From contig DASVNF010000232.1 in assembly GCA_036384015.1 (NCBI GenBank), positions 1 to 48,495 of the forward strand: 48,495 nucleotides of DNA, read 5' to 3'. The stretch is from Burkholderiales bacterium. GTDB taxonomy: Bacteria; Pseudomonadota; Gammaproteobacteria; Burkholderiales; JACQAP01. The position numbers and the translations under genes are program-made. Positions 673 through 45,179 of the stretch are shown here, piece by piece (the first letter of the stretch is position 1; the number at the start of each line of letters is the position of its first letter). Under the pieces are notes generated by a model. That model made no database searches. It was not told the DNA's origin and saw only the letters and a program-made list of their open reading frames with translations.

Positions 673-681
673 CGGGAAATG

Positions 682-772
682 CCGTGACGAACGTGACGGC
701 GTGACGATCGTGGCGGGGCTCTGGAGCCGTCTTGTGCTGTTACGGCCGTCACGATCGTCACGTTCGTCACGG
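682..772. repeat. Hairpin repeat copy A (unit GTGACGA), between moxR stop and DUF58 start
   Basis: Left arm CCGTGACGAACGTGACGGCGTGACGATCGTG (682-712). Right arm CCGTCACGATCGTCACGTTCGTCACGG (746-772). Each arm has three GTGACG/CGTCAC units, and the outer 17 nt are perfectly complementary. Edges +/-3 nt. Confidence 0.7.
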
Positions 773-775
773 TCT

Positions 776-1756
776 TTAGACCCTCGGTGCCTGGACTTTT
801 TCCAGCAGCGCCTTGATCAGCGTGTCGCTGGTGTGGCCTTCGATCTCGAGTTCCGGCGCCGGCGTGACGCGATGCCTGAGCGCGGGCAGGGCCATGCGCT
901 TGACGTCGTCCGGGGTGGCGAAGCCCCGCCCTTCCATGAGGGCGCAGGCTCGGGCGGCGCGCACCAGCGCGATGCCGCCACGCGGTCCGGCGCCGGACGC
1001 GACGCCATTCCAGGTGCGGGTTGCGCGCACGACGCGCACGACATAGTCCTGCACGGCATCGTCCATGGCCACGGCCGCTGCCATGGCCTGCAGTCCGACC
1101 ACGTGCTGCGGCTGGATCAGGCTGCCGACCTGGTCGACGTTGAGTTTCTCGCCGACCTGGCTGGAGGTGATGCGCTTGAGCATCGCGACTTCCTCTTCCA
1201 GGGGCGGATAGTCGATGCGCACTTTCAGGAGGAAGCGGTCGAGCTGCGCTTCGGGCAGGGCGTAAGTGCCTTCCTGTTCGATCGGATTCTGGGTCGCCAG
1301 CACCATGAAGGGCGGCGCCAGCACATGCGACATGCCTTCGATGGTGACCTGTCCCTCCTGCATGACTTCGAGCAGCGCGGCCTGGGTCTTGGCGGGGGCC
1401 CGGTTGATTTCGTCGGCCAGCAGGAGCTGGGTGAACACCGGTCCGCGCCGTGTCGTGAATTCGCCGCTGCGCTGGTCATAGAGCGTATGGCCGGTGACGT
1501 CCGCCGGCATCAGGTCGGGCGTGAACTGGATGCGTGCGTAACTGCCGCCGAAGGTTTTCGCCAGTGCGCGCACCAGCAGCGTCTTGCCCAGGCCGGGCAC
1601 GCCTTCGATCAGCACATGGCCGCCGGCGAACAGCGCGGCCAGAACCTGGTCGACCGTCTCCTCCTGGCCGACCACGGCGCGCGCGATCTGCGTCCGCATC
1701 GCCGTGCCGATGTCGAAGGCCTGCTTGAGCTGCGAATCCGAGAGACTCGTTGTCAT
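776..1756 (-). CDS. MoxR-family AAA+ ATPase
   Basis: ORF 776..1918 trimmed to the ATG at 1756 (MTTSLSDSQLKQAFDIG...). Walker A GVPGLGKT and Walker B LLADEINR are present, with MoxR/AAA_3-like sequence throughout. ATGA overlap with the upstream gene stop at 1753-1756. Confidence 0.9.
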   Translation of the reverse strand: MTTSLSDSQLKQAFDIGTAMRTQIARAVVGQEETVDQVLAALFAGGHVLIEGVPGLGKTLLVRALAKTFGGSYARIQFTPDLMPADVTGHTLYDQRSGEFTTRRGPVFTQLLLADEINRAPAKTQAALLEVMQEGQVTIEGMSHVLAPPFMVLATQNPIEQEGTYALPEAQLDRFLLKVRIDYPPLEEEVAMLKRITSSQVGEKLNVDQVGSLIQPQHVVGLQAMAAAVAMDDAVQDYVVRVVRATRTWNGVASGAGPRGGIALVRAARACALMEGRGFATPDDVKRMALPALRHRVTPAPELEIEGHTSDTLIKALLEKVQAPRV

Positions 1757-12288: not shown

Positions 12289-12327
12289 ATTGTTTTTCTC
12301 CTCCAGATAGCTACTGCATGTCTACAT

Positions 12328-12366
12328 TTCACCGCGAAGGCGCAAAGGAAGGCGAGAAGACAATGG
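12328..12366. repeat. Hairpin-repeat left arm B (unit GCGAAGG/GCAAAGG); partner arm decayed or absent
   Basis: TTCACCGCGAAGGCGCAAAGGAAGGCGAGAAGACAATGG matches the left-arm architecture of copies C-H. Only a weak remnant (CGTGTTTGCGTGGATAGG, about 12470-12487) is seen where a right arm would be. Confidence 0.5.
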
Positions 12367-15233: not shown

Positions 15234-15576
15234 GGTATCTCCAGTCAGTAAATGATGCTGCGCACCATCCGAGACGAAAGCGATCCTGCGCATTCAGTTC
15301 TGCAGCTCCTACTCCGGATCTTCTCAATGAAACTTTAAAAATCATGAGCTAAACAAATTGCACACGCGCTTGACGGTCTCGTCTGGCCAACAGCCTGATA
15401 CATTGTGCAACAAAATTTGACGCAACGCAATAAATGTTTGCCTATCAGGGGTTTGAAGCGCCGGAGGAGCCGGTTCGAAGAGAAAAGAGAAAAGAGAAGG
15501 GGCCACCACAAGCAGGGCAGGACCGCAGGCACGGGTTGGAGACAGCAACTCATTTCACATAAGTGGGGAGGGGTGC

Positions 15577-18035: not shown

Positions 18036-18218
18036 TTCACCGCAGAGGTGCGGAGGCGCAGAGAAGGACGCGCTGAGAAATACAACATGGGGATCTGAAA
18101 TTCGAAAAGTGGTGGGCCAATGGAGGTCTGCCGGGTGACCATGCATGCAATCCTTTCACCTGACACACATATTTTCTTTCTCTGCGTTTCCTCTGCGCCT
18201 CCGCGCCTCTGCGGTGAG
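18036..18218. repeat. Hairpin repeat copy C (units GCAGAGG/GCGGAGG)
   Basis: The left arm is TTCACCGCAGAGGTGCGGAGGCGCAGAGAAGGACGC.... The reverse complement of the right arm is CTCACCGCAGAGGCGCGGAGGCGCAGAGGAAACGCAGAGAAAG. About 26 of the first 27 nt are identical. The core is about 90 bp and unique. Confidence 0.8.
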
Positions 18219-18268
18219 ATCTAGGCGATTGCCTTGGGTGCGGCAACGCCGAGCTTCTCAATCCAGGG

Positions 18269-19282
18269 TTACAGCGACGGCAGGATGCTCGGGTAAAGCT
18301 CGATGCCTTCCTTCAATTGCTTCTCGCGGCGCCTCAATCCCGATTCGCCCGGAAGGCGGACGCGGTCGAAGCCGGGCCGCGGCGGCGTGGTGCGGCAGGC
18401 GTTCGCGATGTGTTCGGTCTGGCGGGTGAAATCTTCGATGCCGCCGAACAGCGCCGGGTCGAACACCTGCACGCAGACGTTTGCCGCCCAGCCTTCGATC
18501 GGATCCGCGCGGCCGTGGCCCGACAAACCCTGGGTCAGCGCTTCAACCAATAGTCCGAGCGCGTAGCCCTTGTGGCCGTGATCGAGGCCGCCGATCGGCA
18601 GCAAACCGCCCTTGGGCTCATTGAATACCACCGCGGGATCGTCGGAAGGAATGCCGTGGCCATCCAGCACCCACTGGCCAGGGAGCTTGCGGCCTTCCTT
18701 GTTCAACCGGCCGGTCAGCCCATGCGTGGTGATGGACATGGAGACATCGATCATCACCGGATCGCCCCTGGTGGGCCATCCCGCGGCAATCGGGTTCGGC
18801 GTGTGGGTGCCCGTTCCCTTGCCGCCGTGCGGAACCACGCCGCCCACTTCCGGCCCGGACGAAATCACCATCACCATCATGCCTTGATCGGTGACGCGTT
18901 TGAGGTACGCGGCGAGGCAGGCGATGTGATGGCTGCGGCGGATGGCGACCGTGCAGGTGCCGTATTTCTTGGCACGCTCGAGCGCCATGTCGATCGCCTT
19001 CGCGGTCAGCCACGTTCCGGGCAGACGCATGCCGTCCCATGTCACCGCCGCCGGAAAGTCCGCGATGACCTTCGGCGCCCCGGTTTTGGTCATGCCGCCT
19101 CTCTCCAGATCGTTCAGATAGGGCGCAAGCAATTGCAGGCCGTGGGTGGAATGTCCAAGCAGATCGCCCTCGACCAGGATCTCGGCAACGATTTTCGATT
19201 TGTCGGATTCGAGTCCTGCCTTGTCGAGCAGGCCGGTGGCGAAGCGCACGAGCTCTTCGGCTTGGTAGCGTTGTGTTGTCAT
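18269..19282 (-). CDS. Ldh_2 family (malate/L-lactate/ureidoglycolate-type) dehydrogenase
   Basis: 337 aa. The blocks GHSTHGLQLLAPYL, IRRSHHIACLAAY and GLDHGHKGYALG are typical of the Ldh_2 family. Confidence 0.85.
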   Translation of the reverse strand: MTTQRYQAEELVRFATGLLDKAGLESDKSKIVAEILVEGDLLGHSTHGLQLLAPYLNDLERGGMTKTGAPKVIADFPAAVTWDGMRLPGTWLTAKAIDMALERAKKYGTCTVAIRRSHHIACLAAYLKRVTDQGMMVMVISSGPEVGGVVPHGGKGTGTHTPNPIAAGWPTRGDPVMIDVSMSITTHGLTGRLNKEGRKLPGQWVLDGHGIPSDDPAVVFNEPKGGLLPIGGLDHGHKGYALGLLVEALTQGLSGHGRADPIEGWAANVCVQVFDPALFGGIEDFTRQTEHIANACRTTPPRPGFDRVRLPGESGLRRREKQLKEGIELYPSILPSL

Positions 19283-19294
19283 TATCTAGATCTT

Positions 19295-19406
19295 TTCACC
19301 GCAGAGGCTGGATCGGACCACCGAGTATGCGGCAGCCGATTATCTCCTGCCCATTTCCAGGCTTTTCTCTGCGTAACCTCTGCGCCCTCGCGCCTCTGCG
19401 GTTAGG
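19295..19406. repeat. Hairpin repeat copy D (left arm truncated to 14 nt)
   Basis: Left arm is TTCACCGCAGAGGC only. Right arm is full: CTTTTCTCTGCGTAACCTCTGCGCCCTCGCGCCTCTGCGGTTAGG. Confidence 0.65.
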
Positions 19407-19412
19407 GATTGA

Positions 19413-20537
19413 TCACATCATTATTATCTGGCGGACGGTGTGGCCGGAGGCGAGGCGGTCGAAGCCGACGTTGATGTCCTCCAGCTTGATGTGGTCGCTC
19501 ATGAGCTTGTTGACCGGCAGCATGCCGCGGCGGTAGAGGTCGATGTAGCGCGGAATGTCGCGAGTCGGCACGCAAGAGCCGACATAGCTGCCCTTGATGG
19601 TGCGTTCCTCGGCAACCATGTTGACGTGTTGCAGCGGCCAGCGATGGTCCGGATGCGGCAGGCCCGCCGAAACAGTGGTGCCGCCGCGGCGGGTGATGCG
19701 GTAGGCCAGTTCCATGGCCTGGATCGATCCGGCCATTTCCAGCGCGAAGTGCACGCCGCCGCCCGTCATCTCCTTGACTTTCTGGATGGCGTCCGGATCT
19801 TTTGCGTTGATGGTATCGGTTGCGCCGAGCGCTTTGGCGAGCTTCAGCTTGTCGTCGTGCAGATCGATGGCGACGATCTGCTGCGCTCCCGCCACGATGG
19901 AACCGAGCAGCGAGTTCAAACCCACGCCGCCGAGGCCGAGGACCGCGACCTTGGAGCCGGGGAACACTTGCGCCGTATTGAACACCGCGCCGACGCCGGT
20001 GAGCACCGCGCAACCGAACAGCGCCGCTTCGTCGAACGGCAGGTCCTTGTCGATCTTGACGACCGATCCGCGATTCACCACGCAGTACTCGGCGAAGGCC
20101 GAAACGCCGACGTGGTGATAGACGTCCTTGCCATGCTGGTGCAGGCGCATGCCGGCATTGAGGAGCTTGCCGGAACCGTTGGCCTGCTGGCCCGGCTCGC
20201 AGCGGCCAGGATGGCCTTCGATGCAGGAAATGCACTGGCCGCAGCTCGGCGCGAACACCAGCGCCACATGGTCGCCGACCTTCAGGTCGTTGACGCCAGG
20301 GCCGACTTCCTGGACGACGCCAGAGGCTTCGTGGCCAAGGATCATCGGCATGGGCCGGGGGCGGTCGCCGTTGACTGACGACAGGTCCGAGTGACAGAGG
20401 CTGGCCGCCTTGACCTGGATCAGCACCTCGCGCTCGCCGGGTTTGTCGAGGTCGACTTCCTCGATGACGAGCGGCTTGCTGTCGGCGTACGGTTGCGGCA
20501 AACCCATCTGCCGGATCACTGCGGCTTTCATCTTCAT
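19413..20537 (-). CDS. Zinc-dependent alcohol dehydrogenase family protein
   Basis: The 737-aa ORF 19413..21626 is trimmed to MKMKAAVIRQ... (ATG 20537, 374 aa). Motifs are CHSDLS, GHEASGVV, the structural-Zn Cys cluster CGQCISCIEGHPGRC, and GLGGVG. Confidence 0.9.
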   Translation of the reverse strand: MKMKAAVIRQMGLPQPYADSKPLVIEEVDLDKPGEREVLIQVKAASLCHSDLSSVNGDRPRPMPMILGHEASGVVQEVGPGVNDLKVGDHVALVFAPSCGQCISCIEGHPGRCEPGQQANGSGKLLNAGMRLHQHGKDVYHHVGVSAFAEYCVVNRGSVVKIDKDLPFDEAALFGCAVLTGVGAVFNTAQVFPGSKVAVLGLGGVGLNSLLGSIVAGAQQIVAIDLHDDKLKLAKALGATDTINAKDPDAIQKVKEMTGGGVHFALEMAGSIQAMELAYRITRRGGTTVSAGLPHPDHRWPLQHVNMVAEERTIKGSYVGSCVPTRDIPRYIDLYRRGMLPVNKLMSDHIKLEDINVGFDRLASGHTVRQIIMM

Positions 20538-20566
20538 TGGAGTGCCTTTATAGTTTTTACCAATCA

Positions 20567-21316
20567 CTAGTAAGTCGCGCGTCCGCCGGAAAGGTCGAAC
20601 GTCGCGCCGGTGGTGAAGGAGCAATCCTCGGTGCACGCCCAGGCGACGGTCGCCGCGATTTCCTCGACCAGGCCGAAGCGGCCCATCGGGATCTTGGACA
20701 GCATGTAGTCGATGTGGCTTTGCGCGACCTGGTCGAAGATCGGCGTTTTGACGGCGGCGGGGGTCACGCAATTGACGGTAATGTTGTTCTTCGCGAGTTC
20801 CTTGCCCAGCGATTTGGTGAGGCCGATTACGGCGGCCTTGGAGGAACTGTAGGCGGATGCGTTCGGGTTGCCTTCCTTGCCAGCCACGGAGGCGATGTTG
20901 ACGATGCGCCCGTAGTTGTTCTTGATCATGTGCGCGGCCACGGTGCGGCAGGTGTAGAAGGTGCCGTTCAGGTTGATGTCGTGGACGCGGATCCATTCGT
21001 CGACCGGATAATCCACGACCACCGCGTTCTTGCCGGCGACGCCGGCAGAATTCACCAGCGCATCGACCTTGCCGAATGCCACCAGGGTCGACTTGAAGGC
21101 CGCTTCGACCTGGTCGATCTTGCTTACGTCGACTTTCGCGGTATGCGTCCTGGGCGCGCCCAGGGACTTCGCGGCATCGGCCATGGTCTGTTCGTTGAAA
21201 TCCCAGATGGCGACGTTGGCGCCCGACTGTGCAAGCCGCCTGGCGATGGCCAGGCCGATGCCCGAGGCCCCGCCGGTGACGATGGCGCTGCGGCCCTTCA
21301 TGTCGAGTTGGTTCAT
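20567..21316 (-). CDS. SDR family oxidoreductase (paralog of 10892-11644)
   Basis: 249 aa, MNQLDMKGRSAIVTGGASGIG..., NSAG, YSSSK. Same C-terminus (SGGRATY) as the other SDR. AGGAGGAG lies upstream of the ATG. Confidence 0.9.
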   Translation of the reverse strand: MNQLDMKGRSAIVTGGASGIGLAIARRLAQSGANVAIWDFNEQTMADAAKSLGAPRTHTAKVDVSKIDQVEAAFKSTLVAFGKVDALVNSAGVAGKNAVVVDYPVDEWIRVHDINLNGTFYTCRTVAAHMIKNNYGRIVNIASVAGKEGNPNASAYSSSKAAVIGLTKSLGKELAKNNITVNCVTPAAVKTPIFDQVAQSHIDYMLSKIPMGRFGLVEEIAATVAWACTEDCSFTTGATFDLSGGRATY

Positions 21317-21408
21317 TGCACTCCTCCTTATTATTCTGGTCGGTAAGCCGGACGGCCGGACAGCCTGACTCGGAAGGGCGCCATTTTAGCAGCCCGAAGG
21401 CCTGACCC

Positions 21409-21603
21409 TTAACCGCAAAGGCGTGAAGGCGCAAAGAAGACCACGCAAAGGAGAGCAACATCGGAGGACGGATTCGATGCCACTTATTGCCGCTGAGGGA
21501 CAAAGTTCGAGATAGGCTCCGCGAACTGTTCACGGTCGATGTCCGAAATTTCGCTTTCCGTTTTCCTTTGCGCTTCCTTTGCGCCTTCGCGCCTTTGTGA
21601 GAG
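21409..21603. repeat. Hairpin repeat copy E (units GCAAAGG/GTGAAGG)
   Basis: The left arm is TTAACCGCAAAGGCGTGAAGGCGCAAAGAAGACCACGCAAAGGAGAGC. The reverse complement of the right arm is CTCTCACAAAGGCGCGAAGGCGCAAAGGAAGCGCAAAGGAAAAC. The right arm ends at the stop codon of the downstream flavoprotein gene. Confidence 0.8.
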
Positions 21604-22770
21604 TTAGACGACCTGGCCCGCGGCAAAGCCGGAGGCCCAGGCCCACTGGAAGTTGTAGCCGCCGAGGTGGCCGGTGACGTCGACGACTTCGCCGATGAAG
21701 TACAGCCCCGGCTGGTTGCGGGCCTCCATGGATTTCGAGGAAAGCTCGCGGGTGTCGACGCCGCCTAGAGTCACCTCGGCCTTCTTGTAGCCGACCGTGC
21801 CGCTTGGCCGGATGCGCCAGTCGTGCAGGCGGGTTGCGATCTCGCGCAGGCGGGGCATGTTGAATCGCTTGACGGGCTGGTTCTGGAAATTGGATTCGAC
21901 CCAGCGTTGCGCGAAGCGCTGCGGCAGGAATTCACCCAGCACGTTGGCGAGGAGTTTTTCCGAATCCTGCGCGGCTTCGAGCAATGCCGAGGCATCTTGA
22001 TCGGGCAGCAGGTTGATCGAAATGTCCTGGCCGTGGCGCCAGTACGAGGAGATCTGCAGGATGGCCGGGCCGGACAGGCCGCGATGGGTGACCAGCAGGT
22101 TTTCGCGAAAGCTCGCGCCGTTGCAACTGACCACGGCGTCGAACGAGAGGCCGGAGAGGTCCTCGAACTGCTTCAATTCGGCGGGGGCGAACGTGAGTCC
22201 GACCAGCGCGGGATGCAGTTCGGTAACATTGAGGCTGAACTGTTCCGCAATGCGATAGCCGAACGGGCTGGCGCCGATCTGCGGAATCGACAGTCCGCCG
22301 CTGGCGATGACCAGGGACTGGCAATCGAATGCGCCACGATCCGTGGCGACTTTGAACCGCACGCTTTTTTCGACAGAATTCACCTTCGCCGGCATGCACC
22401 ATTGCACGCCCGCGGCGTCGCACTCGGCCTTCAGCATGTCGATGATCTGCTGCGCGGAGCCGTCGCAGAACAACTGGCCGAGTTTTTTCTCGTGCCAGGC
22501 GATCCCATGCTTTTCCACAAGTGCGATGAAATCGCGGGGCGTGTAGCGCGCCAGCGCGGAACGGCAGAAATCGGGATTCGCGGACAGGAAGTTCTCAGGC
22601 CGTGCGCCGGTATTGGTGAAGTTGCAGCGTCCGCCGCCGGAGATGCGGATTTTCTCACCCAGTTTTCCGGCGTGATCGATCAACAGCACACGGCGTCCGC
22701 GTTTTCCCGCTTCGATCGCGCACATCATGCCGGCTGCCCCGGCGCCGATGATGATGACTTCGGCGCTCAC
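21604..22770 (-). CDS. BaiN/RdsA (HI0933/YhiN-like) FAD flavoprotein
   Basis: ORF 21604..22923 trimmed to the GTG at 22770 (VSAEVIIIGAGAAGMMCAIEAGKRG...). GGGRCNFTN motif and C-terminal GEVVDVTGHLGGYNFQWAW. Confidence 0.85.
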   Translation of the reverse strand: MSAEVIIIGAGAAGMMCAIEAGKRGRRVLLIDHAGKLGEKIRISGGGRCNFTNTGARPENFLSANPDFCRSALARYTPRDFIALVEKHGIAWHEKKLGQLFCDGSAQQIIDMLKAECDAAGVQWCMPAKVNSVEKSVRFKVATDRGAFDCQSLVIASGGLSIPQIGASPFGYRIAEQFSLNVTELHPALVGLTFAPAELKQFEDLSGLSFDAVVSCNGASFRENLLVTHRGLSGPAILQISSYWRHGQDISINLLPDQDASALLEAAQDSEKLLANVLGEFLPQRFAQRWVESNFQNQPVKRFNMPRLREIATRLHDWRIRPSGTVGYKKAEVTLGGVDTRELSSKSMEARNQPGLYFIGEVVDVTGHLGGYNFQWAWASGFAAGQVV

Positions 22771-22786
22771 CGCGCCGGCCCGCTCT

Positions 22787-23353
22787 TCACCGGAAAAAAT
22801 ACAGGACGGCCAGGAGGATGAGGATTCCGCCCAGGGCCCACAACCACCCCGGCACCGTCGCGCGATGCGCAACCGGGGCGGCTTCCGGCAATGCCGCGGC
22901 CGGCACCGCCCCCGCTGGCGCAACCGTGCTGTTGAAGCGCGCGAAGAAGTCGTCGGACATCTTTTTCGCCACGCCGTCGATCAGGCGCGATCCGATCTGC
23001 GCCAGCTTGCCGCCGACGCTTGCTTTGGCCTTGTAGGTCAGCAGCGTATCGCTGCCGTCCGGCCGCAGGGCGACTTGCGCCGTTCCCTTGCCGAATCCAG
23101 CCGCGCCCCCCGAGCCTTCGAACGCGAGCGAATAGGAGTTCGGCGGATCCAGGTCCGACAACAGCAGCTTGCCGCTGAATTTCGCCTTCACCGGGCCGAC
23201 CGCTGCGATCATCGCCACCTTGTATTCATTGTCGGAAACCCGCTCGATGCTTTCGCAGCCCGGGATGCAGGCCTTGAGGATCTCCGGATCGTTAAGCGCC
23301 TCCCAGACACGTTGTTGCGCAAGAGGGATCCGTTGCTCGCCGCTCATTTCCAT
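22787..23353 (-). CDS. coxG: CoxG-like SRPBCC protein with C-terminal TM anchor
   Basis: 188 aa. MEMSGEQRIPLAQQRVWEALNDPEILKACIPGCES... is CoxG-like. The C-terminal WLWALGGILILLAVLYFF is a hydrophobic anchor. Confidence 0.8.
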   Translation of the reverse strand: MEMSGEQRIPLAQQRVWEALNDPEILKACIPGCESIERVSDNEYKVAMIAAVGPVKAKFSGKLLLSDLDPPNSYSLAFEGSGGAAGFGKGTAQVALRPDGSDTLLTYKAKASVGGKLAQIGSRLIDGVAKKMSDDFFARFNSTVAPAGAVPAAALPEAAPVAHRATVPGWLWALGGILILLAVLYFFR

Positions 23354-23491
23354 GGTGGGTCTTCTTTCCTGGATATTCTGATGGGTTCATGCGCCGCGTT
23401 GGGACGGCATTGGGATTATGCGCCCGCTTGGCGGCGTTCAAGCGCGAAATGCGGGGCATGACTGTCACCGCAGTCGGCGATGACAACGACT

Positions 23492-24658
23492 TCATATTTG
23501 CTTGATCGCAGTCGCGCCGGCGGGCCTGGCCAGGGCCCGGGTCAGATCGAGCAGGCTTCCCACGTTGTGGACCGGCAGGAATTCATCGACATGCGGCAGC
23601 ATGGCCTTCACACCGGTGGCGCGTGGTTCGAAGCCCTCGAAACGCAGGAGCGGATTGAGCCAGATCAGCCGGTGGCAGGATTTGTGCAGGCGTTCCATCT
23701 GCTCCGGCAGGTCTTCGCCTGCATCGCGGTCGAGTCCGTCGCTGATCAGCATGACCACCGCGTTCTGTCCGAGTACCCGGCGCGACCAGCGCAGGTTGAA
23801 CTCCTTCAGCGTCGCACCGATGCGCGTGCCGCCTGACCAGTCGGCCGCAGCTTGCGACACCGCGCCGAGCGCCACGTCGACGTCGCGATGCCGGAGATGC
23901 CGCGTTACATTGGTGAGCCGGGTGCCGAAGACGAAGCTGTGCACGCGGTCGCGGTCGTTGGTGATGGCGTGCAGGAAATGCAGGAACATGCGCGAATAGC
24001 GGCTCATGGAGCCTGAGATGTCGCAAAGCACGACCAGTGGCGGAGGGCGGCGGCGATGCGAGCGGCGGCGCAGCGGGATGATGTCGGCGTTCCCGCGCAA
24101 TCCGGCACGCAGGCTCGCGCGCAGGTCCACCTGTCTGCCATGCGGGTCGGGATGCAGGCGCCGCGTGCGGATCTGCGGGATCGGCAGGCGCAGTCCGGCG
24201 ATCAGGCGCTTGGCCTGTTCCAGCTCTTCGGCGGTCATGGTCTCGAAATCCTGTCGCTGCAGGCGCTCGATTTCGGAGGCGCTCAGCGCGGCGTCGGGCT
24301 CCACGTCCTGCTTTTCCGCCCGCATCGCCACTTTCCTGGTAAGGCCGAGGGCTTCGGCAATGCGGTTCGGGGTCTGGTCCTGCGGGTTCTTCGCCGGCGT
24401 GGCCTGCCCGGATTGCAGCAAAGCGCGGTCGAGCAGATGGCGTTCGCGCCAGAACAGGCGGAAGGCCTGGTCGAACAGTTCGAACTGCTCGTGCCGGGAA
24501 AGGAACACCGACGCCAGCGTCCAGTAGAAGTCCTCCCGCTTCTCGATGCCGGCAAGCTCCAGCGCTCGCAGGCCATCCAGCACCCGATCAGGCCCGACCG
24601 GCACGCCCGCTTTGCGCAGCGCGCGGGCGAAGTGGACAACGTTCTCAGCGAGGTTCAT
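23492..24658 (-). CDS. coxE: VWA domain protein, CoxE family
   Basis: 388 aa. It has a CoxE-like N-terminus (FARALRKAGVPVG). The C-terminal VWA domain has a MIDAS-like LCDISGSM and WLNPL. Confidence 0.85.
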   Translation of the reverse strand: MNLAENVVHFARALRKAGVPVGPDRVLDGLRALELAGIEKREDFYWTLASVFLSRHEQFELFDQAFRLFWRERHLLDRALLQSGQATPAKNPQDQTPNRIAEALGLTRKVAMRAEKQDVEPDAALSASEIERLQRQDFETMTAEELEQAKRLIAGLRLPIPQIRTRRLHPDPHGRQVDLRASLRAGLRGNADIIPLRRRSHRRRPPPLVVLCDISGSMSRYSRMFLHFLHAITNDRDRVHSFVFGTRLTNVTRHLRHRDVDVALGAVSQAAADWSGGTRIGATLKEFNLRWSRRVLGQNAVVMLISDGLDRDAGEDLPEQMERLHKSCHRLIWLNPLLRFEGFEPRATGVKAMLPHVDEFLPVHNVGSLLDLTRALARPAGATAIKQI

Positions 24659-24671
24659 TCAGATCAAAGTC

Positions 24672-24829
24672 CATCACAGAGATACAGAGGATACAGAGGA
24701 AACCAAAGTGGATCGAAAAGCGAATGACACAGTACGCATTTTGCGACCCCGTCAATCGTGATGCCGCTCAAACGCCAGTTAGTTGTTCCCCGTTCTCGCC
24801 TTCAGTTTTTCTCTGTGTCGTCTGTGAGG
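24672..24829. repeat. Hairpin repeat copy F (unit ACAGAGG)
   Basis: The left arm is CATCACAGAGATACAGAGGATACAGAGGAAACC. The reverse complement of the right arm is CCTCACAGACGACACAGAGAAAAAC. AGATCTAAG, which contains the coxL stop codon, follows directly. Confidence 0.7.
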
Positions 24830-24834
24830 AAGAT

Positions 24835-27138
24835 CTAAGCAGCCTGGGACTTATTGATCGCCCGCCAGACCTTCTCGGGCGTTGCGGGCATTTCGATCTG
24901 TTTTACGCCCAAAGGACGCAGGGCATCGATCACGGCGTTCATGACGGTGGGCGTGCCGCCGACCGTGCCGAGTTCGCCGACGCCCTTGGCGCCGAGGGGA
25001 TTGATCTTGCAGGGCGTGGTTTCGTCAGTGAAGGTGGTGAAATTGGGCAGGTCGTCAGCGCGCGGCAGGCAGTAATCCAGCAGCGAACCGGTGACCAGCT
25101 GGCCGCTCTCGGGATCGTAGTGGGTGTTTTCCAGCAGCGCCTGGCCGACGGCCTGCGCGATGCCGCCATGCACCTGGCCGGCAACGATCAGGGGGTTGAT
25201 GACACGACCCACGTCGTCGACCGTCGTGTAGCGCACGATCCGGGTGACGCCGGTTTCCGGATCGATCTCCACTTCGCAGACGTGGCAGCTGTTCGGCCAG
25301 GAAGGTCCGTCCACTTTTTGCAGGGTCGTGATGGCAATGCGCTTTTCCGGCTGCTTGGCGGCGAGGTAGAACAGACCGATGTCCAGGTCCGTTCCGGCCA
25401 CTTTGAATCGACCGTCGCGGTATTCGATGTCCTGGCCCGCGGCTTCCAGTGCGTCGGCGGCAAGCTGCCGGCCTTTTTCAATAGTCTCCTTTGACGCGGT
25501 CAGCATCGCCGAGCCGCCGATGTACAGCGAGCGGCTGCCCATGCTGCCGATGCCCTGGGCGATGTCGCTGTCGCCCTGGACGATGACGATGCGATCCGGG
25601 TCGATATCAAGGGTTTCGGAAATGATCTGCACATAGCTGGTCTCGATGCCCTGGCCCATCGCCTGCATCGCCGTATAGACGAGCACCCTGCCATCGGCCT
25701 CGATGTGCAGGTTGACGGTTTCCTCGTGCACCACGCCCGTCCATTCCAGGAACGTGGACAGGGCCCTGCCGCGCAGCCTGCCGCGCTTCTTGGATTCGTC
25801 GCGGCGCGCGGGATAACCCTTCCAGTCCGCGGCTTCGAGGATGCGATCGAGCATGTGCGGGAAATTGCCGCTGTCGAATTTCTCGCCCATCGGGGTCTTG
25901 TAGGGCATTTGCGAGGGCTGGATGAAATTGCGCCTGCGCAGTTCCGCCGGATCCATTTTCATCTCCGCCGCCGCCTGATCCATCAGGCGTTCGAGCAGGT
26001 AAATGGCTTCCGGCCTTCCGGCGCCGCGATAGGCGCCAACCAGGTTGGTGTTGGTCATCACGGCGGTGCCGCGCAGATGCAGCGCCGGAACATGGTAGAC
26101 GCCGGTGATGACCTTGGGCCCGACCGCAACGACGATCACCGCGCCCGGACCCGTGGCATGAGCACCGATGTTGCCGATGATGTTTACGCGCAAACCGAGG
26201 ATCTTGCCTTCCGCATCGAAGGCCAGTTCCGCCTCGTTGATCTGGTCGCGGCCGTGGTTGCCGCCGAGGAATTCCTCGCTGCGGCTGGCGCGCCAATGCA
26301 CGGCGCGCTTGAGCTTGCGCGCAGCCCAGGCGCACACCACGTCCTCGGCGTACAGCTGCGTCTTCATGCCGAAGCCGCCGCCGACATCGCCGACGACGAC
26401 GCGCACGTCCTTCATCGGAACCTTCAGGCAGCCTTCGGCCAGCGTCTTCTGCAATCCGGCGGGGTTCTGGCAACTGGTACGCAGAATGGTGCGTCCGGTC
26501 TTCGCATCGAATTCGGCGATGCTGCCGCGCGGCTCCATGCTTACCGGCACCAGGCGCTGGTTGTAGAGGGAGAGCTTGGTGATGTGCTGGGCCTTGGCGA
26601 AAGCGGCGTCGCACAAGTCCTTCTTGCCGAATTCCGTCTGCGCGGCAATATTGCCCGGCGCCTTGTCCCAGAGCAGCGGCGCGCCCTTGGCGATCGCGGC
26701 CGCAATGGTCACGACCGCGGGGAGTTCCTTGTAGTCCACCATCACCTGTTCGGCTGCATCTTCCGCCTGGATGCGGGTCTGGGCGAATACGGCAGCCACC
26801 GGCTCGCCTACATAGCGTGCTGCATCGGTAGCGAGTGCGTAGTGGGGAGCGCCGCACATGGCTTCGCCGTCGGCGCGCTTCAGGCCCGCGCCATCCGGCA
26901 ACGGACCTATCCCGTCGGCAAGCATGTCAGCGCCGGTCAGCACCGCCGCGACGCCCGGCATGGCTTTTGCAGCGCTGGCGTCGATCGAGGCTATTCGGGC
27001 GTGGGCGTGCGGGGAACGCACGAAGGCGACGAAAAGTTCGTTGCCGGCCGCCACGTCATCCACATATTGCCCGGTGCCGAGGAGGAGTCGAAGGTCTTCC
27101 CTGCGGGTCAGCGCCTGACCGATGCCGAACTTTGCCAT
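24835..27138 (-). CDS. coxL: Molybdopterin-binding large subunit of a xanthine-dehydrogenase-family enzyme, form-II CoxL-like
   Basis: 767 aa. The active-site loop AYRGAGR is encoded at 26014-26034, checked by translating the reverse strand. That is the form-II signature, not the AYxCSFR of bona fide CO dehydrogenases. Confidence 0.9.
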
Positions 27139-27337
27139 GCTTTATCCTTTTTCTATCAGTGTGCGCCGCGAACGGGGATTGAAGTCCGGGCGCTGCTATT
27201 TGGGCAATGTCCGGGAATTTTACGCCAGCCTTCCGGCGGACGTCCGGTCCGCTTTCGGTTGTGTCAGGGGCTGTGGTTGTCTAGGATTCCGGTTTGGCCG
27301 GCAATGCCGGCGTTCACCGTCGAAGAAGGGAAGACCC

Positions 27338-27802
27338 ATGCCAGTCCGGTTGACCATGACCGTAAACGGAAAGCCCGTGAGCGCGGAAGTCGAGCCGCGC
27401 CTGCTGCTGGTGGATTTCATCCGGGACACGTTGCGCCTCACCGGCACGCACATCGGCTGCGATACTGCCCAATGCGGCGCCTGTACGATCCACATGAACG
27501 GAAATGCGGTGAAATGCTGCAACATGCTGGCGGTCCAGGCGCAGGGCGCCCAGATCGTTACCATTGAAGGCCTCGCCAAGGCCGACGGCACCATGCATCC
27601 GATGCAGGCGGCATTCCGCGATCACCATGGCCTGCAGTGCGGCTATTGCACCCCCGGCATGGTGATGAGCGCGCTGGACCTGGTAAAGCGGCATCCCAAT
27701 CCCAGCGAAGAGACGATTCGCGCGGAACTCGATGGCAACCTGTGTCGCTGCACCGGTTACCACAACATCGTCAAAGCCGTGCAAGCCGGCGCCAAGGCCT
27801 GA
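27338..27802 (+). CDS. coxS: (2Fe-2S)-binding small subunit, CoxS-like
   Basis: ORF 27122..27802 trimmed to [14 protein letters not shown]... (ATG 27338), with GAAGGGAAG upstream. [10 protein letters not shown] and CGYCTPGM...CRCTGY cluster motifs. Confidence 0.9.
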
Positions 27803-27813
27803 GGCATTATGCC

Positions 27814-27861
27814 CAACGCAAAGCGTTGCGACCTTCGCGTTCTTCGCGCCTTGCGTTGAGG
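27814..27861. repeat. Compact hairpin-repeat copy I (unit GCAAAGG/GCGAAG) in the coxS-coxM spacer
   Basis: CAACGCAAAGCG pairs with CGCCTTGCGTTG. The right arm CCTTCGCGTTCTTCGCGCCTTGCGTTGAGG has the same unit style as copy H. There is no separate core. Confidence 0.45.
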
Positions 27862-27880
27862 TTTAACTGAGGGTTAGAAC

Positions 27881-28684
27881 ATGCATGAATTCAATTATCA
27901 CAAGGCGTCGAGCGTCGCGGACGCCGCCGCAAGGATCGCCTCCTCCTCCGATGGCAAGCTGCTCGCCGGGGGACAAACACTGATTGCCGCCATGAAAATG
28001 CGCCTTGCGGCGCCGGCGGATATCGTCGACCTCGGCGGGATCGCCGACTTGCGGGGCATCAAGGTCGAAGGCGGCGGCATCGTAGTCGGCGCCATGACCA
28101 CCCATGCCGAGGTTTCCGCGTCGAAGGACGTGCAGAAGGCCATTCCGGCGCTTGCGGTTCTGGCCGGCAGCATCGGGGACCGCATGGTCCGCAATATGGG
28201 CACGCTCGGCGGATCAGTCGCCAACAATGATCCCGCGGCGGACTATCCCGCGGCCCTGGTGGCTTTGGGCGCTACGGTCATTACCAGCAGGCGCAAGCTC
28301 GCGGCGGACCAGTTTTTCACCGGCATGTACGAAACCGCGCTGGAAACCGGCGAGATCATCACCTCGGTCTCATTTCCGGTACCCAAGCGCGCCGGCTACA
28401 TGAAATTCAAGAACCCGGCATCGCGTTACGCGATGGTCGGCGTATTCGTGGCTGACACGGCAAGCGGCGTCCGCGTTGCCGTCACCGGCGCGGGCCCCAG
28501 CGTATTTCGCGTGGCTGATATGGAGAAGGCCCTGGCCAAGTCGTTTTCTCCAGATGCGGCCGCCAATGTGAAAGTCTCCGCGAACGGCTTGAACACCGAC
28601 ATCCACGCCAGTGCCGAATATCGCGCGCATCTGGTCTCGGTAATGGCGAAGCGCGCGGTGGAGCAGGCTCTTGCCGGAAAATAA
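27881..28684 (+). CDS. coxM: FAD-binding medium subunit, CoxM-like
   Basis: 267 aa. LLAGGQTLIAAMKMRL, GGSVANNDPAADYP and a CO-dehydrogenase flavoprotein C-terminal domain. Confidence 0.9.
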   Translation: MHEFNYHKASSVADAAARIASSSDGKLLAGGQTLIAAMKMRLAAPADIVDLGGIADLRGIKVEGGGIVVGAMTTHAEVSASKDVQKAIPALAVLAGSIGDRMVRNMGTLGGSVANNDPAADYPAALVALGATVITSRRKLAADQFFTGMYETALETGEIITSVSFPVPKRAGYMKFKNPASRYAMVGVFVADTASGVRVAVTGAGPSVFRVADMEKALAKSFSPDAAANVKVSANGLNTDIHASAEYRAHLVSVMAKRAVEQALAGK

Positions 28685-29594
28685 ACAGGCGCTGCCTCAG
28701 TCCATCGACGCAACCCTTGAGCTGTTGGCGCGCGGCGAATACGTCGCGGAACGTTCGCTTGCCACCGCCGTGTTCCTCGCCCTGCGCATGGGCCGGCCGC
28801 TGTTCCTCGAAGGCGAAGCCGGCGTCGGCAAGACCGAGATTGCCAAGGTCCTTTCCGGCACACTGGGCCGGCCGCTGATCCGCTTGCAATGCTACGAGGG
28901 CCTGGACATCGCCTCGGCGGTGTACGAATGGAATTATCCGAGGCAGATGATCGAGATTCGCCTGGCGGAAGCGGGCGGCGCGGGTTCCAAGGAAAGCCTG
29001 GAGAAGGACATCTTCAGTGAACGCTTCCTGATCCGCCGTCCGTTGCTGCAGGCGCTGGATTCTTCGAATGGCGAGCCTCCCGTGCTCCTGATCGACGAAC
29101 TGGACCGCACCGACGAGCCGTTCGAGGCCTACCTGCTGGAAGTCCTGGCGGATTTTCAGGTGACCATTCCCGAGATCGGCACCATCAGGGCGGCGCAGCC
29201 GCCGATCGTCATCATCACGTCGAACCGCACGCGTGAAATCCATGACGCGGTGAAGCGTCGTTGCCTCTACCATTGGGTGGACTATCCCGTCGCGGCACGC
29301 GAACTCGAGATCGTCAAGCGCAAGGCCCCCCGGGTTGCCGAAAAGCTGTCGGGGGAGGTCGTGGCTTTCGTGCAGAAGCTGCGGGCCATGGACCTTTTCA
29401 AGCGCCCCGGTATAGCCGAGACGATCGATTGGGCCAAAGCCCTGGTCGAACTGGACCGCCAGTCGCTGGATGCGGGCACAGTCAACGATACCCTCGGCGT
29501 GCTGCTCAAGTACCAGGACGACATTTCCGCCGTGCGCGGCAGCGAGGCGGCGCGCATCCTCGAGGAAATCCGGGCCGAAGTCGCTGCGCACTGA
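28671..29594 (+). CDS. coxD: MoxR-class AAA+ ATPase, CoxD-like
   Basis: 307 aa. Walker A GEAGVGKT and Walker B LLIDELDR. TTG start at 28671 overlaps the coxM end by 14 nt, so the start is uncertain. Confidence 0.85.
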   Translation: MPENKQALPQSIDATLELLARGEYVAERSLATAVFLALRMGRPLFLEGEAGVGKTEIAKVLSGTLGRPLIRLQCYEGLDIASAVYEWNYPRQMIEIRLAEAGGAGSKESLEKDIFSERFLIRRPLLQALDSSNGEPPVLLIDELDRTDEPFEAYLLEVLADFQVTIPEIGTIRAAQPPIVIITSNRTREIHDAVKRRCLYHWVDYPVAARELEIVKRKAPRVAEKLSGEVVAFVQKLRAMDLFKRPGIAETIDWAKALVELDRQSLDAGTVNDTLGVLLKYQDDISAVRGSEAARILEEIRAEVAAH

Positions 29595-29612
29595 ATGTGG
29601 GACCTACACCCT

Positions 29613-29762
29613 TTCACCGCAGAGGCGCAGAGGACGCAGAGAAAAACCAATGACAATACGTGAGACGTCGTATTGGCACACCGGCAGGCAAGCGCCTGCC
29701 ACGAGCGTTGAACCAGTCTGACCCTGGATCTTGTTTTCCTCTGTGTCCTCTGTGCGTGGTGG
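29613..29762. repeat. Hairpin repeat copy G (unit GCAGAGG / ACAGAGG)
   Basis: The left arm is TTCACCGCAGAGGCGCAGAGGACGCAGAGAAAAACCAA. The reverse complement of the right arm is CCACCACGCACAGAGGACACAGAGGAAAACAAG. The core contains two further perfect 7-bp hairpins (29654-29675 and 29683-29700). Confidence 0.8.
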
Positions 29763-29782
29763 ATGGAAAGATGCAGAAGGGT

Positions 29783-29816
29783 GAAAAAAAAGCCCCGGCA
29801 AGCCGGGGCTTTTTTG
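29783..29816. terminator. Bidirectional intrinsic terminator
   Basis: An A-run, then stem AGCCCCGG (29791-29798), loop CAAG, stem CCGGGGCT (29803-29810), then a T-run. It lies between the convergent coxD transcript and the 40-aa gene. Confidence 0.8.
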
Positions 29817-29832
29817 GTGTGTTCCGGGTGGA

Positions 29833-29955
29833 TTACTTGTACTTCGCCCAGAGTTCCTCATTGAGTTTCGCCTGTTCCTTGCCGAGAGACATCACCCAGT
29901 AGAGGCAGCCGATGACGACGGTGAGCGGACCCAGAAGCAGAATTGCGGAAGTCAT
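29833..29955 (-). CDS. Small membrane protein, 40 aa (below ORF-track cutoff)
   Basis: The reverse-strand translation is MTSAILLLGPLTVVIGCLYWVMSLGKEQAKLNEELWAKYK*. TAGGAGT lies 7 nt upstream of the ATG. The gene has GC-rich third positions. The strong terminator starts 17 nt after its stop. Confidence 0.6.
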   Translation of the reverse strand: MTSAILLLGPLTVVIGCLYWVMSLGKEQAKLNEELWAKYK

Positions 29956-30116
29956 GCCTTGTTACTCCTATTTTTGGGAAGAGTCGCCGAAGGTCGCGAC
30001 AGGCTAAGCGGAGCTTTTGGCTCGGGCCTGAATAAGACCGGGAAGCACGGCGGCGGCGAATGATACCCGATACGCGGACGGAAGTTGCTGCAGTTTGTTA
30101 CGGCAGGGTGAGCCCC

Positions 30117-30303
30117 CAACCGCAAAGGCGCGAAGACGCAAAGGGGTCGCAAAGAAAGGCAATGAAAACCGGGAAGGAGCGCGGATCATCATTCGCGCGA
30201 CTATTGTCGCTGGTGGAATAAAACTCACGCAGACTACCCATCACGCCGTTTTTTTTGTCCTCCTGTGCGCTTCCTTCGCGTCCTTTGCGCCTTTGCGGTG
30301 AGG
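30117..30303. repeat. Hairpin repeat copy H (units GCAAAGG/GCGAAG)
   Basis: The left arm is CAACCGCAAAGGCGCGAAGACGCAAAGGGGTCGCAAAGAAAGGCAATG. The reverse complement of the right arm is CCTCACCGCAAAGGCGCAAAGGACGCGAAGGAAGCGCACAGGAGGAC. The right arm ends 6 nt before the stop of the DpgC-like gene. Confidence 0.8.
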
Positions 30304-30309
30304 TTGACT

Positions 30310-31728
30310 CTAAAGCTTGCGGCTCTTGGCGTTCCAGTGCATTTCGAGGTTGGAGATCAGCGCCGGGCTGAAATGGCAGTAGGCCTGTTCGAGCGCGTAG
30401 GTGGCGAAGTAACGGCGGAACAGGTCGAGGGGCTCCTGGGATACGCGCATGGCGCGCCGGTTCGAGGCCGAGCTGACGACGCCCGACCCGGTGAAATTTT
30501 CGACTACACGGTCGATCGCCGCATCCATGTCGCCGGGGTCGACGATTTCATCGCAGATCAGCATGCCTTCCGGGCTGTCGCATTCGAGCCGGCGCTGGTA
30601 CATGATCGCCTGGCGTGCGATGCGTTCACCCGTGAAGCGGGGCAGGCGCATGTTGGCCGCGCCGGGGATGATGCCTTCCTTGCGCGCGGGCAAGCTGAGA
30701 AACGCACCGCGCGCGGCCAGTACATAGTCCATGGTCAGCAGGTACTGGCAGTGCCCGCCGATGGCGAACTCCTCCACCACGCTGATCCAGGGTTTTTCGA
30801 TGGTCTGTCCGTGGACGTCGTCGGGCACCATGTTTTCACGCGCCACGCCGCGGTAGAACTTGTTGACGATGCCCAGGTCGCGCTGCAGGTACCAGATGAA
30901 TGGGATCTTGCCGTAGTAAAGGTGCGTCAGGTTGATGCCGCTGCCGAGCATGCGACGGCCGTCGTACTTGCCCCCTTGCACAGGGTCACCGCGCAACACG
31001 CCGATCTGCGTGTCGGGATCGAGGATCGCGATGTCGACCGCGATTTCCGCCGCATCGATCGTGGTGTCGTCTTCTGCGTTCAGGTGGCGCGGATTCTTCT
31101 GGATCACATAGGCAGCGTTGCCTTTGCGGAAAATCTCGGCCGCGCCGAGGTCCAGCCGGCCGCTGCCGCGGAATTCGGGCAGCCGTTCGATCGCCTCCGG
31201 GCGGGGCAGCAGCATGGCGTGGCAAAGGTGCATTCCCGTCTCGGCGTTGGCCAGCACGCTGCTGACGAAGATGCCCTGGTCGATCTCGAACCCGTCCTTG
31301 TCACGCTGCATCAGCGCCGATTCGATGTCGACCTGGGCCTGGGTGGGGGTCAACCCCGGGACCAGGGCGGCGGCGTCATAAATAAGGTTCTCGACGCGCA
31401 CGAACTTTGAACGGTTGCGCGTGAGCTTGTCGTAGACCACCATCGCATGCGCGCGAAGGAAGGCGGTGCGCGCCTCGCGCGCAACCCGCTTGATCTGCTC
31501 CGCGGCTTCCGCCTGCAAGGCGTCGCGCGCGGGCTTCGCCGGCAGCCTCGCCAGGATCTGTGCGCTGGTCTGCCAGAAACGGGAATAACGAATGCAATCG
31601 CCGGCGAAATCGGCGGTATCGGCCGGGGCCGTCGCATGCCAGGCTTCGATCGCGTCATCGCTGATCTGCGCACGGCGCAGGCTTTCGGTTTCCTGAACGA
31701 GGGGTTTGATTGCGGGTGCCGCCACCAT
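30310..31728 (-). CDS. Crotonase-fold protein resembling DpgC, the cofactor-independent (3,5-dihydroxyphenyl)acetyl-CoA 1,2-dioxygenase
   Basis: 472 aa. An N-terminal helical region of about 200 aa precedes an enoyl-CoA hydratase-like core. That core includes LNAEDD...AVDIAILD...GVLRG, GSGINL, KPWISVVEEFAIGGHCQYLL and SLPARKEGIIPGAANMRL. The domain layout and motifs match my recollection of DpgC. AAAGGAG overlaps the paaK stop. Confidence 0.55.
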   Translation of the reverse strand: MVAAPAIKPLVQETESLRRAQISDDAIEAWHATAPADTADFAGDCIRYSRFWQTSAQILARLPAKPARDALQAEAAEQIKRVAREARTAFLRAHAMVVYDKLTRNRSKFVRVENLIYDAAALVPGLTPTQAQVDIESALMQRDKDGFEIDQGIFVSSVLANAETGMHLCHAMLLPRPEAIERLPEFRGSGRLDLGAAEIFRKGNAAYVIQKNPRHLNAEDDTTIDAAEIAVDIAILDPDTQIGVLRGDPVQGGKYDGRRMLGSGINLTHLYYGKIPFIWYLQRDLGIVNKFYRGVARENMVPDDVHGQTIEKPWISVVEEFAIGGHCQYLLTMDYVLAARGAFLSLPARKEGIIPGAANMRLPRFTGERIARQAIMYQRRLECDSPEGMLICDEIVDPGDMDAAIDRVVENFTGSGVVSSASNRRAMRVSQEPLDLFRRYFATYALEQAYCHFSPALISNLEMHWNAKSRKL

Positions 31729-37065: not shown

Positions 37066-37154
37066 CCTGTGAAGGGTTCCTGTGAAGGTTTAAAGTGAAG
37101 GGGGAAGGGTTCAGGCTTCCCCCGGAATCGTATTCGCCCCTTCACGCCTTCATC
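37066..37154. repeat. Hairpin repeat copy J (unit GTGAAGG) between rubrerythrin and the Fe-S gene
   Basis: Left arm is CCTGTGAAGGGTTCCTGTGAAGGTTTAAAGTGAAGGGGGAAGGG. Right arm is CGCCCCTTCACGCCTTCATCAG. An inner perfect 8-bp hairpin is formed by GGGGGAAG (37100-37107) and CTTCCCCC (37116-37123). Confidence 0.55.

Positions 37155-45102: not shown

Positions 45103-45179
<77 letters not shown>

Follow-up and report, generated by a model that had tools for sequence, protein, structure and literature searches.

Why should the two arms of a hairpin agree with each other when the unit that they are built from changes from one copy of the hairpin to the next? The question is raised by a contig of a Burkholderiales bacterium (DASVNF010000232.1; 48,495 nt, 63% G+C; this whole stretch is called the window below), which carries ten intergenic foldback elements, seven of them within positions 18036-30303. 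A preliminary description of this DNA stated that both arms of a copy use the same unit flavour while the flavour differs between copies, and it offered two mechanisms: selection on the secondary structure, or hairpin-templated repair or conversion. We find that the matching of the arms is real and general. The copies in the window are probably gene-less members, resembling MITEs (miniature inverted-repeat transposable elements), of a widespread family of small mobile foldbacks, with arms that are matched by lineage and by exchange at the DNA level.

Partner Arms Match within a Copy

An arm begins with a short terminus (TCACC, TAACC, CCAACC or CCCAAC; in general (T/C)NACC or CCCAAC) and continues with three to five tandem units of the form RC-N-R-AGG plus one or two spacer bases, 8-9 nt in all, the regularity fading inwards. 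The unit period varies from 7 to 9 nt. There is an invariant core of C at position 2 and A-G at positions 5-6 (columns 8, 11 and 12 in an alignment of 30 mini-hairpins). The elements of the window are 49-193 bp long with no open reading frame (ORF) inside, and their arms of 17-45 nt, 85-96% complementary, enclose centres of 20-130 nt that are unrelated between copies. At least five unit flavours occur within this one 48-kb window.

The matching of partner arms can be read directly in the window, at 26/27 positions in copy C and 20/21 in copy E. The flavours named in the preliminary description stand (GCAGAGG/GCGGAGG in C, GCAAAGG/GYGAAGG in E, ACAGAG in F, GCAAAGG/GCGAAG in H, GTGACG in A and GTGAAGG in J), with the qualification that the GCGAAG unit of copy H takes second place on one arm but third on its partner. 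RNA fold energies run from -49 to -92 kcal/mol; copies A, C, E, G and H fold strongly (z = -5 to -8), whereas D, F and J are weaker, with F and J pairing weakly at z = -2.5 and -3.5. The fold z-scores are alike on both strands and with DNA parameters. When seven copies of the window are taken alone, partner-arm identity is 0.795, and none of the 5040 permutations scores better than the true pairing (exact 1/5040).

The larger samples include loci outside the window, numbered here as L loci; the best relatives of the window are uncultured Burkholderiales-like contigs. Syntenic relatives were gathered by a metagenome scan with Ldh_2, a protein of the lactate-dehydrogenase family, the identities of which are 81-96%. 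Among 49 non-redundant elements from the window and its relatives, arm identity is 0.861 within a copy and 0.654 between copies, and the partner is the best match for 39/49. The ungapped, terminus-anchored alignment of 30 mini-hairpins (A5) has 87.3% of its cells paired, as against 66.8 +/- 0.9 with shuffled partners (0/500 shuffles), and a covariation score of 0.604 as against 0.242; slid-register controls pair 38-52%. Another sample consists of 74 elements from many phyla, each retrieved by one of its arms alone. At their three free R positions the two arms agree in 193/222 cases (odds ratio 41, p = 8e-29), and counted by arm pairs these positions covary element-wide (GGG/GGG 32, AAA/AAA 17, AAA/GGG 2). 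The 30-hairpin and 74-element tests bear out that the arms co-vary between copies with layout and pairing kept. Since the sample from the window, that from its relatives and the independent one-arm sample all show partner matching, the observation is real and general. The exceptions are chimeric copies with arms of different flavour, found in L010, L080, L095 and the D-position element of L143.

As had been proposed, no one fixed recognition sequence is conserved, the unit flavours differing between copies. A flavour-blind search of the pattern-found loci recovered the same architecture built from many other units, among them GCCGAGG, CACGAAGG, GTGAGGA, GCGAGAG, CACAAAAGG and GATATGA. GTGAAGG arrays of 3-13 units, related to copy J, occur in L139-L144. 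Upstream of Ldh_2 in L141, units of the GTGACGA type (the flavour of copy A) stand as direct arrays flanking a small palindrome, GAATCAATGCTATTGATTC, rather than as inverted arms.

It had also been said that the purine arm always comes first on the transcribed strand. That holds of necessity for an inverted repeat, since a purine-arm...pyrimidine-arm sequence is again purine-first once reverse-complemented. The part of the statement that is not trivial is the polarity itself, which is never reversed: 55 elements are purine-first and 0 are pyrimidine-first in 629 kb. The further suggestion that Shine-Dalgarno-like or CsrA-site-like motifs of the purine arm are sequestered by the other arm is contradicted by flavours that have no GGA or AGG (GTGACGA, ACAGAGA, GATATGA and CACAAAAG).

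Occupied and Empty Junctions

Comparison of the same gene junctions among relatives shows that the elements move, or did so until recently. The Ldh_2|EamA junction, the site of copy C, is empty in L124, the closest relative of the window (96% amino acid identity), where stop and start overlap as TGATG; aligned to L124, the window has ~196 extra bases exactly at this junction. The same junction is also empty in L132, L136, L137, L141, L143, L145 and L147, and elsewhere it is occupied by elements of five flavours, with GCAGAGG-C, GCAGAGG-AC, GCAAAGG, ACAGAGG, ACGAAGG or ACGGAGG units. At adh_short|ADH the window has no element, whereas L120, L123, L125, L126, L129 and L130 have one. In the comparison of the window with L123, where the genes are 84-89% identical in nucleotides, all shared junctions differ in the presence, flavour, period or terminus of the element. 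Solo arms occur, and L002 has one element nested in the loop of another. A single 24-nt arm pattern leads to >119 loci in Betaproteobacteria, Verrucomicrobia, Planctomycetes, Acidobacteria, Bacteroidota, Cyanobacteria, Lentisphaerae and others; the chance expectation, estimated from the degeneracy of the pattern, is <1 match in 596 Gb.

Several smaller features accompany the elements. At the right boundary of the element in the position of copy C in L139 (1455-1500), L140, L142 and L144, a tandem duplication with a 3-nt spacer takes in the last 5 nt of the element and 10 nt of its flank (GGTGAGCGCTGTGTT), a possible trace of insertion, excision or slippage at that end. Another hairpin family, CCCTCTCC...GGAGAGGG, lies in the foldback loop in L132:40-150, replaces most of the foldback upstream of Ldh_2 in L147, and is also present in L001 and L015; its pyrimidine arm comes first in L132 and L147. 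Foldback loops seem to be landing sites for other small repeats. A 37-nt insert, TACCCTACG(T/G)GCGTAGCACGTCGGAGTACCCTTTTAGG, sits between arm units in L123:7096-7135 and in both arms of the L212 GxxExxY element described below, where the two inserts form a perfect inverted pair (about 1130-1170 and 1590-1625). This insert is perhaps a secondary mobile sequence of even smaller size, or else it may be evidence of one arm having been copied from the other.

A Nuclease Gene within the Same Arms

Gene-bearing elements exist in which the same arms flank a GxxExxY gene of ~125 aa (TIGR04256; PF13366, PDDEXK_3), the whole spanning about 0.45-0.7 kb. All 7 GxxExxY ORFs in the ~1.4 Mb of loci L001-L202 directly abut arms, and in 4/7 the right arm begins 0-30 nt past the gene stop. 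A search that began from the protein gave 6 independent loci (the L203 group, the L212 group, L222, L223, L225 and L227), five of which have arms on two sides and one a left arm only; both arms of each element found in this way share a flavour, whether GCAAAGG, GCAGAGG or ACAGAGG.

The composites of L138 (at ADH|Ldh_2) and L143 (at AAA|VWA_CoxE) are 84% identical in nucleotides, and their similarity stops exactly at the CAAC...GTTGAG ends. Both (L138:121-762 and L143:268-860) have the order [left arm-centre-right arm]-gene-[right arm], with the right arm directly repeated on either side of the gene; recombination between the two repeats would remove the gene, and what was left would be a plain foldback. 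A plain foldback is what L145 has at the junction of the L138 composite. The clades of the GxxExxY protein follow flavour, not junction: members of the GCAAAGG group are 78-86% identical and the two GCAGAGG proteins 78%, as against 65-75% for other pairs, and the nearest relative of every copy from ADH|Ldh_2 is one from the other junction. This tracking of flavour by the nuclease clade indicates that gene and arms travel together.

The protein belongs to the PD-(D/E)XK superfamily (E = 4e-41 to PF13366 and 1e-41 to TIGR04256), and the residues of the catalytic D...E.K motif, D72, E82 and K84, are invariant or nearly so. Its AlphaFold model has a pLDDT (predicted local distance difference test) of 89.6, and the best PDB neighbours by Foldseek are Cas4 and lambda-exonuclease-like nucleases; these matches are weak (E = 3e-3) and confirm the general nuclease fold only. 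A sequence search of the PDB with the protein gave no meaningful match. More than 7,900 homologues (>7,900) were scored in one search, and PF13366 is entered as 'Unknown' in a survey of the superfamily (PMC3424549). A literature search of incomplete coverage found no publication that describes the arms or links GxxExxY, PF13366 or TIGR04256 to repeats, and the link between this gene and the elements appears undescribed. We infer that the GxxExxY protein may mobilise the elements.

Exchange between the Arms

Of the two mechanisms originally put forward, hairpin-templated repair or conversion fits best, on account of elements that have been inverted in place and of units that have turned over in place in number and flavour. 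The element at L120:8481-8695 matches that at L123:4423-4635 at 173/213 positions as reverse complement, as against 151 on the same strand, and the L139 element matches that of L140 at 152 positions as reverse complement and 136 on the same strand. The members of each inverted pair have the same flanking genes in unchanged order, and centres are alike only between orthologous junctions. The two inversions show recombination between the two arms of an element, and such recombination could also bring about arm-to-arm conversion. Unit number differs between orthologues (3 vs 6 GCAAAGG units; 3, 5 and 13 GTGAAGG units), and between the shared-centre orthologues L123 and L138/L145 the flavour differs in several units of both arms; such turnover agrees with unit variants being spread by slippage or conversion. 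The samples of in-place events are small.

Position-by-position compensatory evolution under selection on RNA structure, the other mechanism proposed, is not supported. Mirroring in register is seen in only 2 of 12 mosaic arms (arms with one unit of the other flavour). In the orthologous series L142/L144/L139/L129/L140/L130/L123 there is one compensated double change (L129 vs L142) as against at least four one-sided changes or arm truncations. Among 1714 arm positions oriented by the sense strand, mismatches are 48 of the G.U type, 59 of the A.C type and 73 transversions, and there is no G.U bias.

Under the explanation that we prefer, both arms of a copy would descend from one element lineage, which is marked by the flavour (GCAGAGG, GCAAAGG, ACAGAGG, ACGGAGG and so on). 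After insertion, the arms would be kept alike at the DNA level by recombination between them, which flips the element and allows conversion, and units would be gained, lost and spread by slippage. Arm-to-arm conversion presumably accompanies the inversions. The GxxExxY protein possibly recognises the hairpin or cruciform structure rather than one sequence, and the position of the elements right after stop codons may be where insertions are tolerated or targeted.

Weighing the Explanations

Several observations weigh against this explanation. No consistent direct repeat that could be a target-site duplication flanks C, E or the L126, L129 and L139 elements, as compared by eye in pairs of occupied and empty sites, the empty sites being highly diverged. 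No two non-orthologous copies share a centre, and with centres unique to each locus a recent transposition of a whole gene-less copy is not directly demonstrated. A few private variants are mirrored in register (L123/L126 unit 3 and L129 unit 2). The 44 ORFs of the window that were scanned include no transposase, no REP-associated tyrosine transposase (RAYT) and no GxxExxY gene. The orthology of the relatives, all of them metagenomic contigs, is inferred from synteny and partial similarity of the centres. We know of no citable precedent for a 125-aa nuclease acting alone as a transposase, and the GxxExxY gene could equally be cargo that lodges in the hairpins. Two further points are what a structure selected by the host would give likewise: orthologues are better conserved in their arms (0.83-0.95) than in their centres (0.54-0.78 of length), and some junctions, ADH|Ldh_2 in particular, stay occupied down to 63-70% protein identity.

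It is these last two points, the conserved arms and the lasting occupancy of ADH|Ldh_2 across deep divergence, that keep a host-level role in RNA or DNA alive for us, as an unlikely alternative. The elements would then be a structured RNA in operon mRNAs, acting as a stabiliser, an RNase III site or a modulator of translational coupling, with compensatory substitutions keeping the stems. Very strong covariation statistics, the very low fold energies, the one compensated double change and the positions of the copies are all in keeping with this: every copy in 18036-30303 begins 1-9 nt past a stop codon (for C, the ancestral stop) and ends 7-20 nt before the next start. It is opposed by sites that are empty in the closest relatives with the genes intact, by the rarity of in-register mirroring and by the lack of an excess of G.U over A.C mismatches on the sense strand. 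Chimeras and half copies survive, a nuclease gene lies between arms of the same kind, and the stems have no Rfam family and no U-tract after them. An inversion in place keeps the stem yet shows exchange of DNA between the arms.

More improbable again is a purely in-place origin without transposition, in which a small inverted repeat grows at each locus by replication slippage and fold-back template switching and so acquires a unit of its own. The unit-number polymorphism and flavour turnover at orthologous sites, the centres unique to each locus and the very diverse unit flavours in other genomes are all compatible with such growth. However, the same terminus and 24-mer recur across many phyla and loci with an invariant polarity, a bounded composite with the same ends sits at two different junctions, flavour follows nuclease clade, and copies are nested. 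We give least credence of all, and very little, to the idea that the units are operator-like or iteron-like arrays of binding sites for a host DNA- or RNA-binding protein, the flavours serving paralogous binders and the inverted layout being needed for binding. The fixed 8-9-nt period, the invariant core and the arms being better conserved than the centres suit a binding site; the five or more flavours in 48 kb with no associated regulator genes, the freely varying unit number and spacing, and sites that are dispensable in close relatives do not.

Copies in the Window

The positions of the copies are collected in Table 1; they agree with those given in the preliminary description, to which the short copy K is an addition. 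A covariance model made from the mini-hairpins (R1) recovered only A and K and was not used for the inventory; it missed C, E and H because it cannot span their 100-130-nt centres.

Table 1. Foldback copies of the window, with the terminator that follows copy G, by position.
Feature	Position	Arms and units	Fold or model score	Setting
Copy A	677..777	CGTGACGA units on both arms, short centre	z = -5.4/-8.5; matched by R1	Between two minus-strand genes; outside 18036-30303
Copy B	12327..12361	Solo purine arm TTTCACC-GCGAAGG-C-GCAAAGG..., without partner arm		Upstream of RraA-like gene
Copy C	18037..18217	Arms 18037-18080 and 18175-18217; TCACC-GCAGAGG-N-GCGGAGG-C-GCAGAG...	-91.9 kcal/mol, z = -8.1	Between Ldh_2 and EamA (both minus strand); 3 nt past ancestral Ldh_2 stop, 7 nt before EamA ATG
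Copy D	19295..19404	Intact arm 19364-19404, reverse complement TAACC-GCAGAGG-C-GCGAGGG-C-GCAGAGG-TTAC-GCAGAG; other arm reduced to TTCACCGCAGAGG at 19295-19307, most of it lost		Between ADH and Ldh_2
Copy E	21410..21602	TAACC-GCAAAGG-C-GTGAAGG-C-GCAAAG... and complement ending CCTTTGTGAG; 21416-21436 matched to 21577-21597	z = -5.3	Begins 1-2 nt past stop of HI0933-like gene; left flank TGACCCTTAACC found again in L134
Copy F	24673..24829	ACAGAGG units: ATCACAGAG-AT-ACAGAGG-AT-ACAGAGG / CTCTGTGTCGTCTGTGAGG; weaker pairing	z = -2.5	Between CoxE-like and MoCoBD genes
Copy K	27812..27860	Short degenerate CAAC...GTTG subtype, CCCAACGCAAAG / CCTTCGCGTTCTTCGCGCCTTGCGTTGAGG	R1 19.0 bits, E about 0.001	Just past stop codon 27800-27802, before FAD_binding_5 gene
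Copy G	29604..29776	CTACACCCTTTCACC-GCAGAGG-C-GCAGAGG-AC-GCAGAG / CCTCTGTGTCCTCTGTGCGTGGTGG	z = -6.1	Begins 9 nt past stop of AAA (MoxR/CoxD-like) gene
Terminator	29787-29815	AAAAAAAAGCCCCGGCAAGCCGGGGCTTTTTT, canonical bidirectional intrinsic terminator		Separate from and just after copy G
Copy H	30116..30302	CCAACC-GCAAAGG-C-GCGAAGA-C-GCAAAGG-GGTC-GCAAAG / ...CCTTCGCGTCCTTTGCGCCTTTGCGGTGAGG	z = -6.5	7 nt past stop of gene 30310-31728 (minus strand)
Copy J	37066..37152	Three GTGAAGG units facing CCCTTCACGCCTTCA; weak pairing	z = -3.5	Outside 18036-30303

Some other identities were considered and rejected. The copies are not intrinsic terminators, there being no T-run after the 3' arm of C, D, E, F, H or K on either strand. 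They have no GTTRRRY core and no integrase, as an integron attC site would, and no regular spacers like those of a CRISPR array. The units GCAGAGG, GCAAAGG and ACAGAGG have at most two consecutive G, which does not suit G-quadruplex repeats. Rfam has no match to the elements in the window; its sole match above the gathering threshold is a tRNA gene at 45103-45176.

Comparison with Known Systems

Bacterial MITEs such as Correia, Nezha and Chunjie are short, non-coding and intergenic, with terminal inverted repeats and insertion polymorphism, and they have larger gene-carrying relatives that share their ends. The foldbacks are likewise short (<~500 bp) and non-coding with terminal inverted repeats, are present or absent at orthologous sites, and have gene-bearing relatives with the same arms. 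They differ in that no consistent target-site duplication was found and the internal sequence is not common to copies, in ends that consist of tandem units differing between lineages, and in a partner gene that is not of a known transposase family. Arm-to-arm recombination also keeps the arms alike in plastid inverted repeats and Y-chromosome palindromes. Like these large palindromes, the foldbacks show inversion of what lies between the arms, and arms that evolve in concert, although the arms here are 30-45 nt as against kilobases there.

The closest known system in behaviour is that of the REPINs, which are doublets of repetitive extragenic palindromic (REP) sequences mobilised by RAYT transposases and for which compensatory hairpin changes have been reported (Bertels and Rainey 2011, PMC3116915). 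Both kinds of element are short, abundant and intergenic, with two inverted conserved arms around a less conserved spacer that form a long hairpin (PMC3116915), and both are non-autonomous, relying on a separately encoded protein. REPs, however, are palindromic with a GTAG/CGTC head, whereas the arms here are purine-rich direct tandem 8-9-mers that are not self-complementary, with termini TCACC, TAACC or CCCAAC, and are not REP arms. No RAYT (an IS200-like Y1 transposase) was seen, moreover, among the 44 scanned ORFs of the window or beside any inspected copy; the associated gene is instead the PD-(D/E)XK gene GxxExxY, located inside the element.

In architecture, the closest published counterpart is the convergent GGGAATC arrays of Xanthomonas, intergenic tandem heptamers of which there are 70-75 convergent inverted pairs per genome, on opposite strands (Rehm et al. 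2015, PMC4692102). The units here are likewise intergenic, tandem, purine-rich and 7 nt long. The heptamer repeats of Xanthomonas and cyanobacteria are read as formers of G-quadruplexes, and their length varies between species while the type is kept (PMC4692102). The units here differ in lacking the G-runs for a quadruplex, and that paper mentions no link to a nuclease gene, no mobility and no covariation of flavour.

Genes and Other Features of the Window

The genes of the window are ordinary metabolic and housekeeping genes, including a cox-like cluster, Ldh_2, EamA, short-chain and zinc dehydrogenases, obg, proB and a pilS-like gene. By megablast against plasmids, the stretch 17.0-31.5 kb matched only genes that are distantly related. 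Next to copy C, the Ldh_2 frame (minus strand) stops at a TAA (18269-18271) where all relatives have CAA (Gln), and it runs 16 codons further to the ancestral TAG at 18221-18223, 3 nt from the element. The protein of the window is accordingly 337 aa, as against 353-354 aa in homologues, and looking it up as an exact sequence gave no recorded match. The early TAA is either a nonsense mutation or a sequencing error. After the terminator that follows copy G there is a minus-strand ORF of ~40 codons (29835-29957) resembling a small membrane peptide. A perfect heptamer array, AAGAGAA x3, stands without an inverted partner upstream of the FAD_binding_3 gene (15478-15498). At 6984-9343 (minus strand), an FGE-sulfatase/DinB_2 gene adjoins a histidine-specific methyltransferase gene (Methyltransf_33), a pair that we take to resemble EgtB/EgtD of ergothioneine synthesis.

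What the Elements May Mean

A wider proposal can be made, which we hold only tentatively and think somewhat less likely than its opposite. GxxExxY/PDDEXK_3 proteins would be the mobilising nucleases of very small selfish elements that span phyla (0.45-0.7 kb with the gene), the ends of which are hairpin-forming tandem 8-9-mer arrays read by structure (hairpin or cruciform) or by a unit specificity that co-evolves with them. Their MITEs would be the gene-less foldbacks, present in hundreds per genome and kept paired by arm-to-arm recombination. If the link to the nuclease is true, it would give a function to the large orphan family PF13366 and explain a very common kind of intergenic 'junk' in many bacterial phyla.

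Foldback elements also break metagenome assemblies, and they hold a caution for RNA discovery that is based on covariation: foldback DNA yields very strong 'compensatory' statistics without sign of selection at the RNA level. For the bacteria that carry them, placement 1-9 nt after stop codons inside operons, together with strong folding (-50 to -95 kcal/mol), makes it likely that the gain, loss or flipping of an element alters mRNA processing and translational coupling between close strains.

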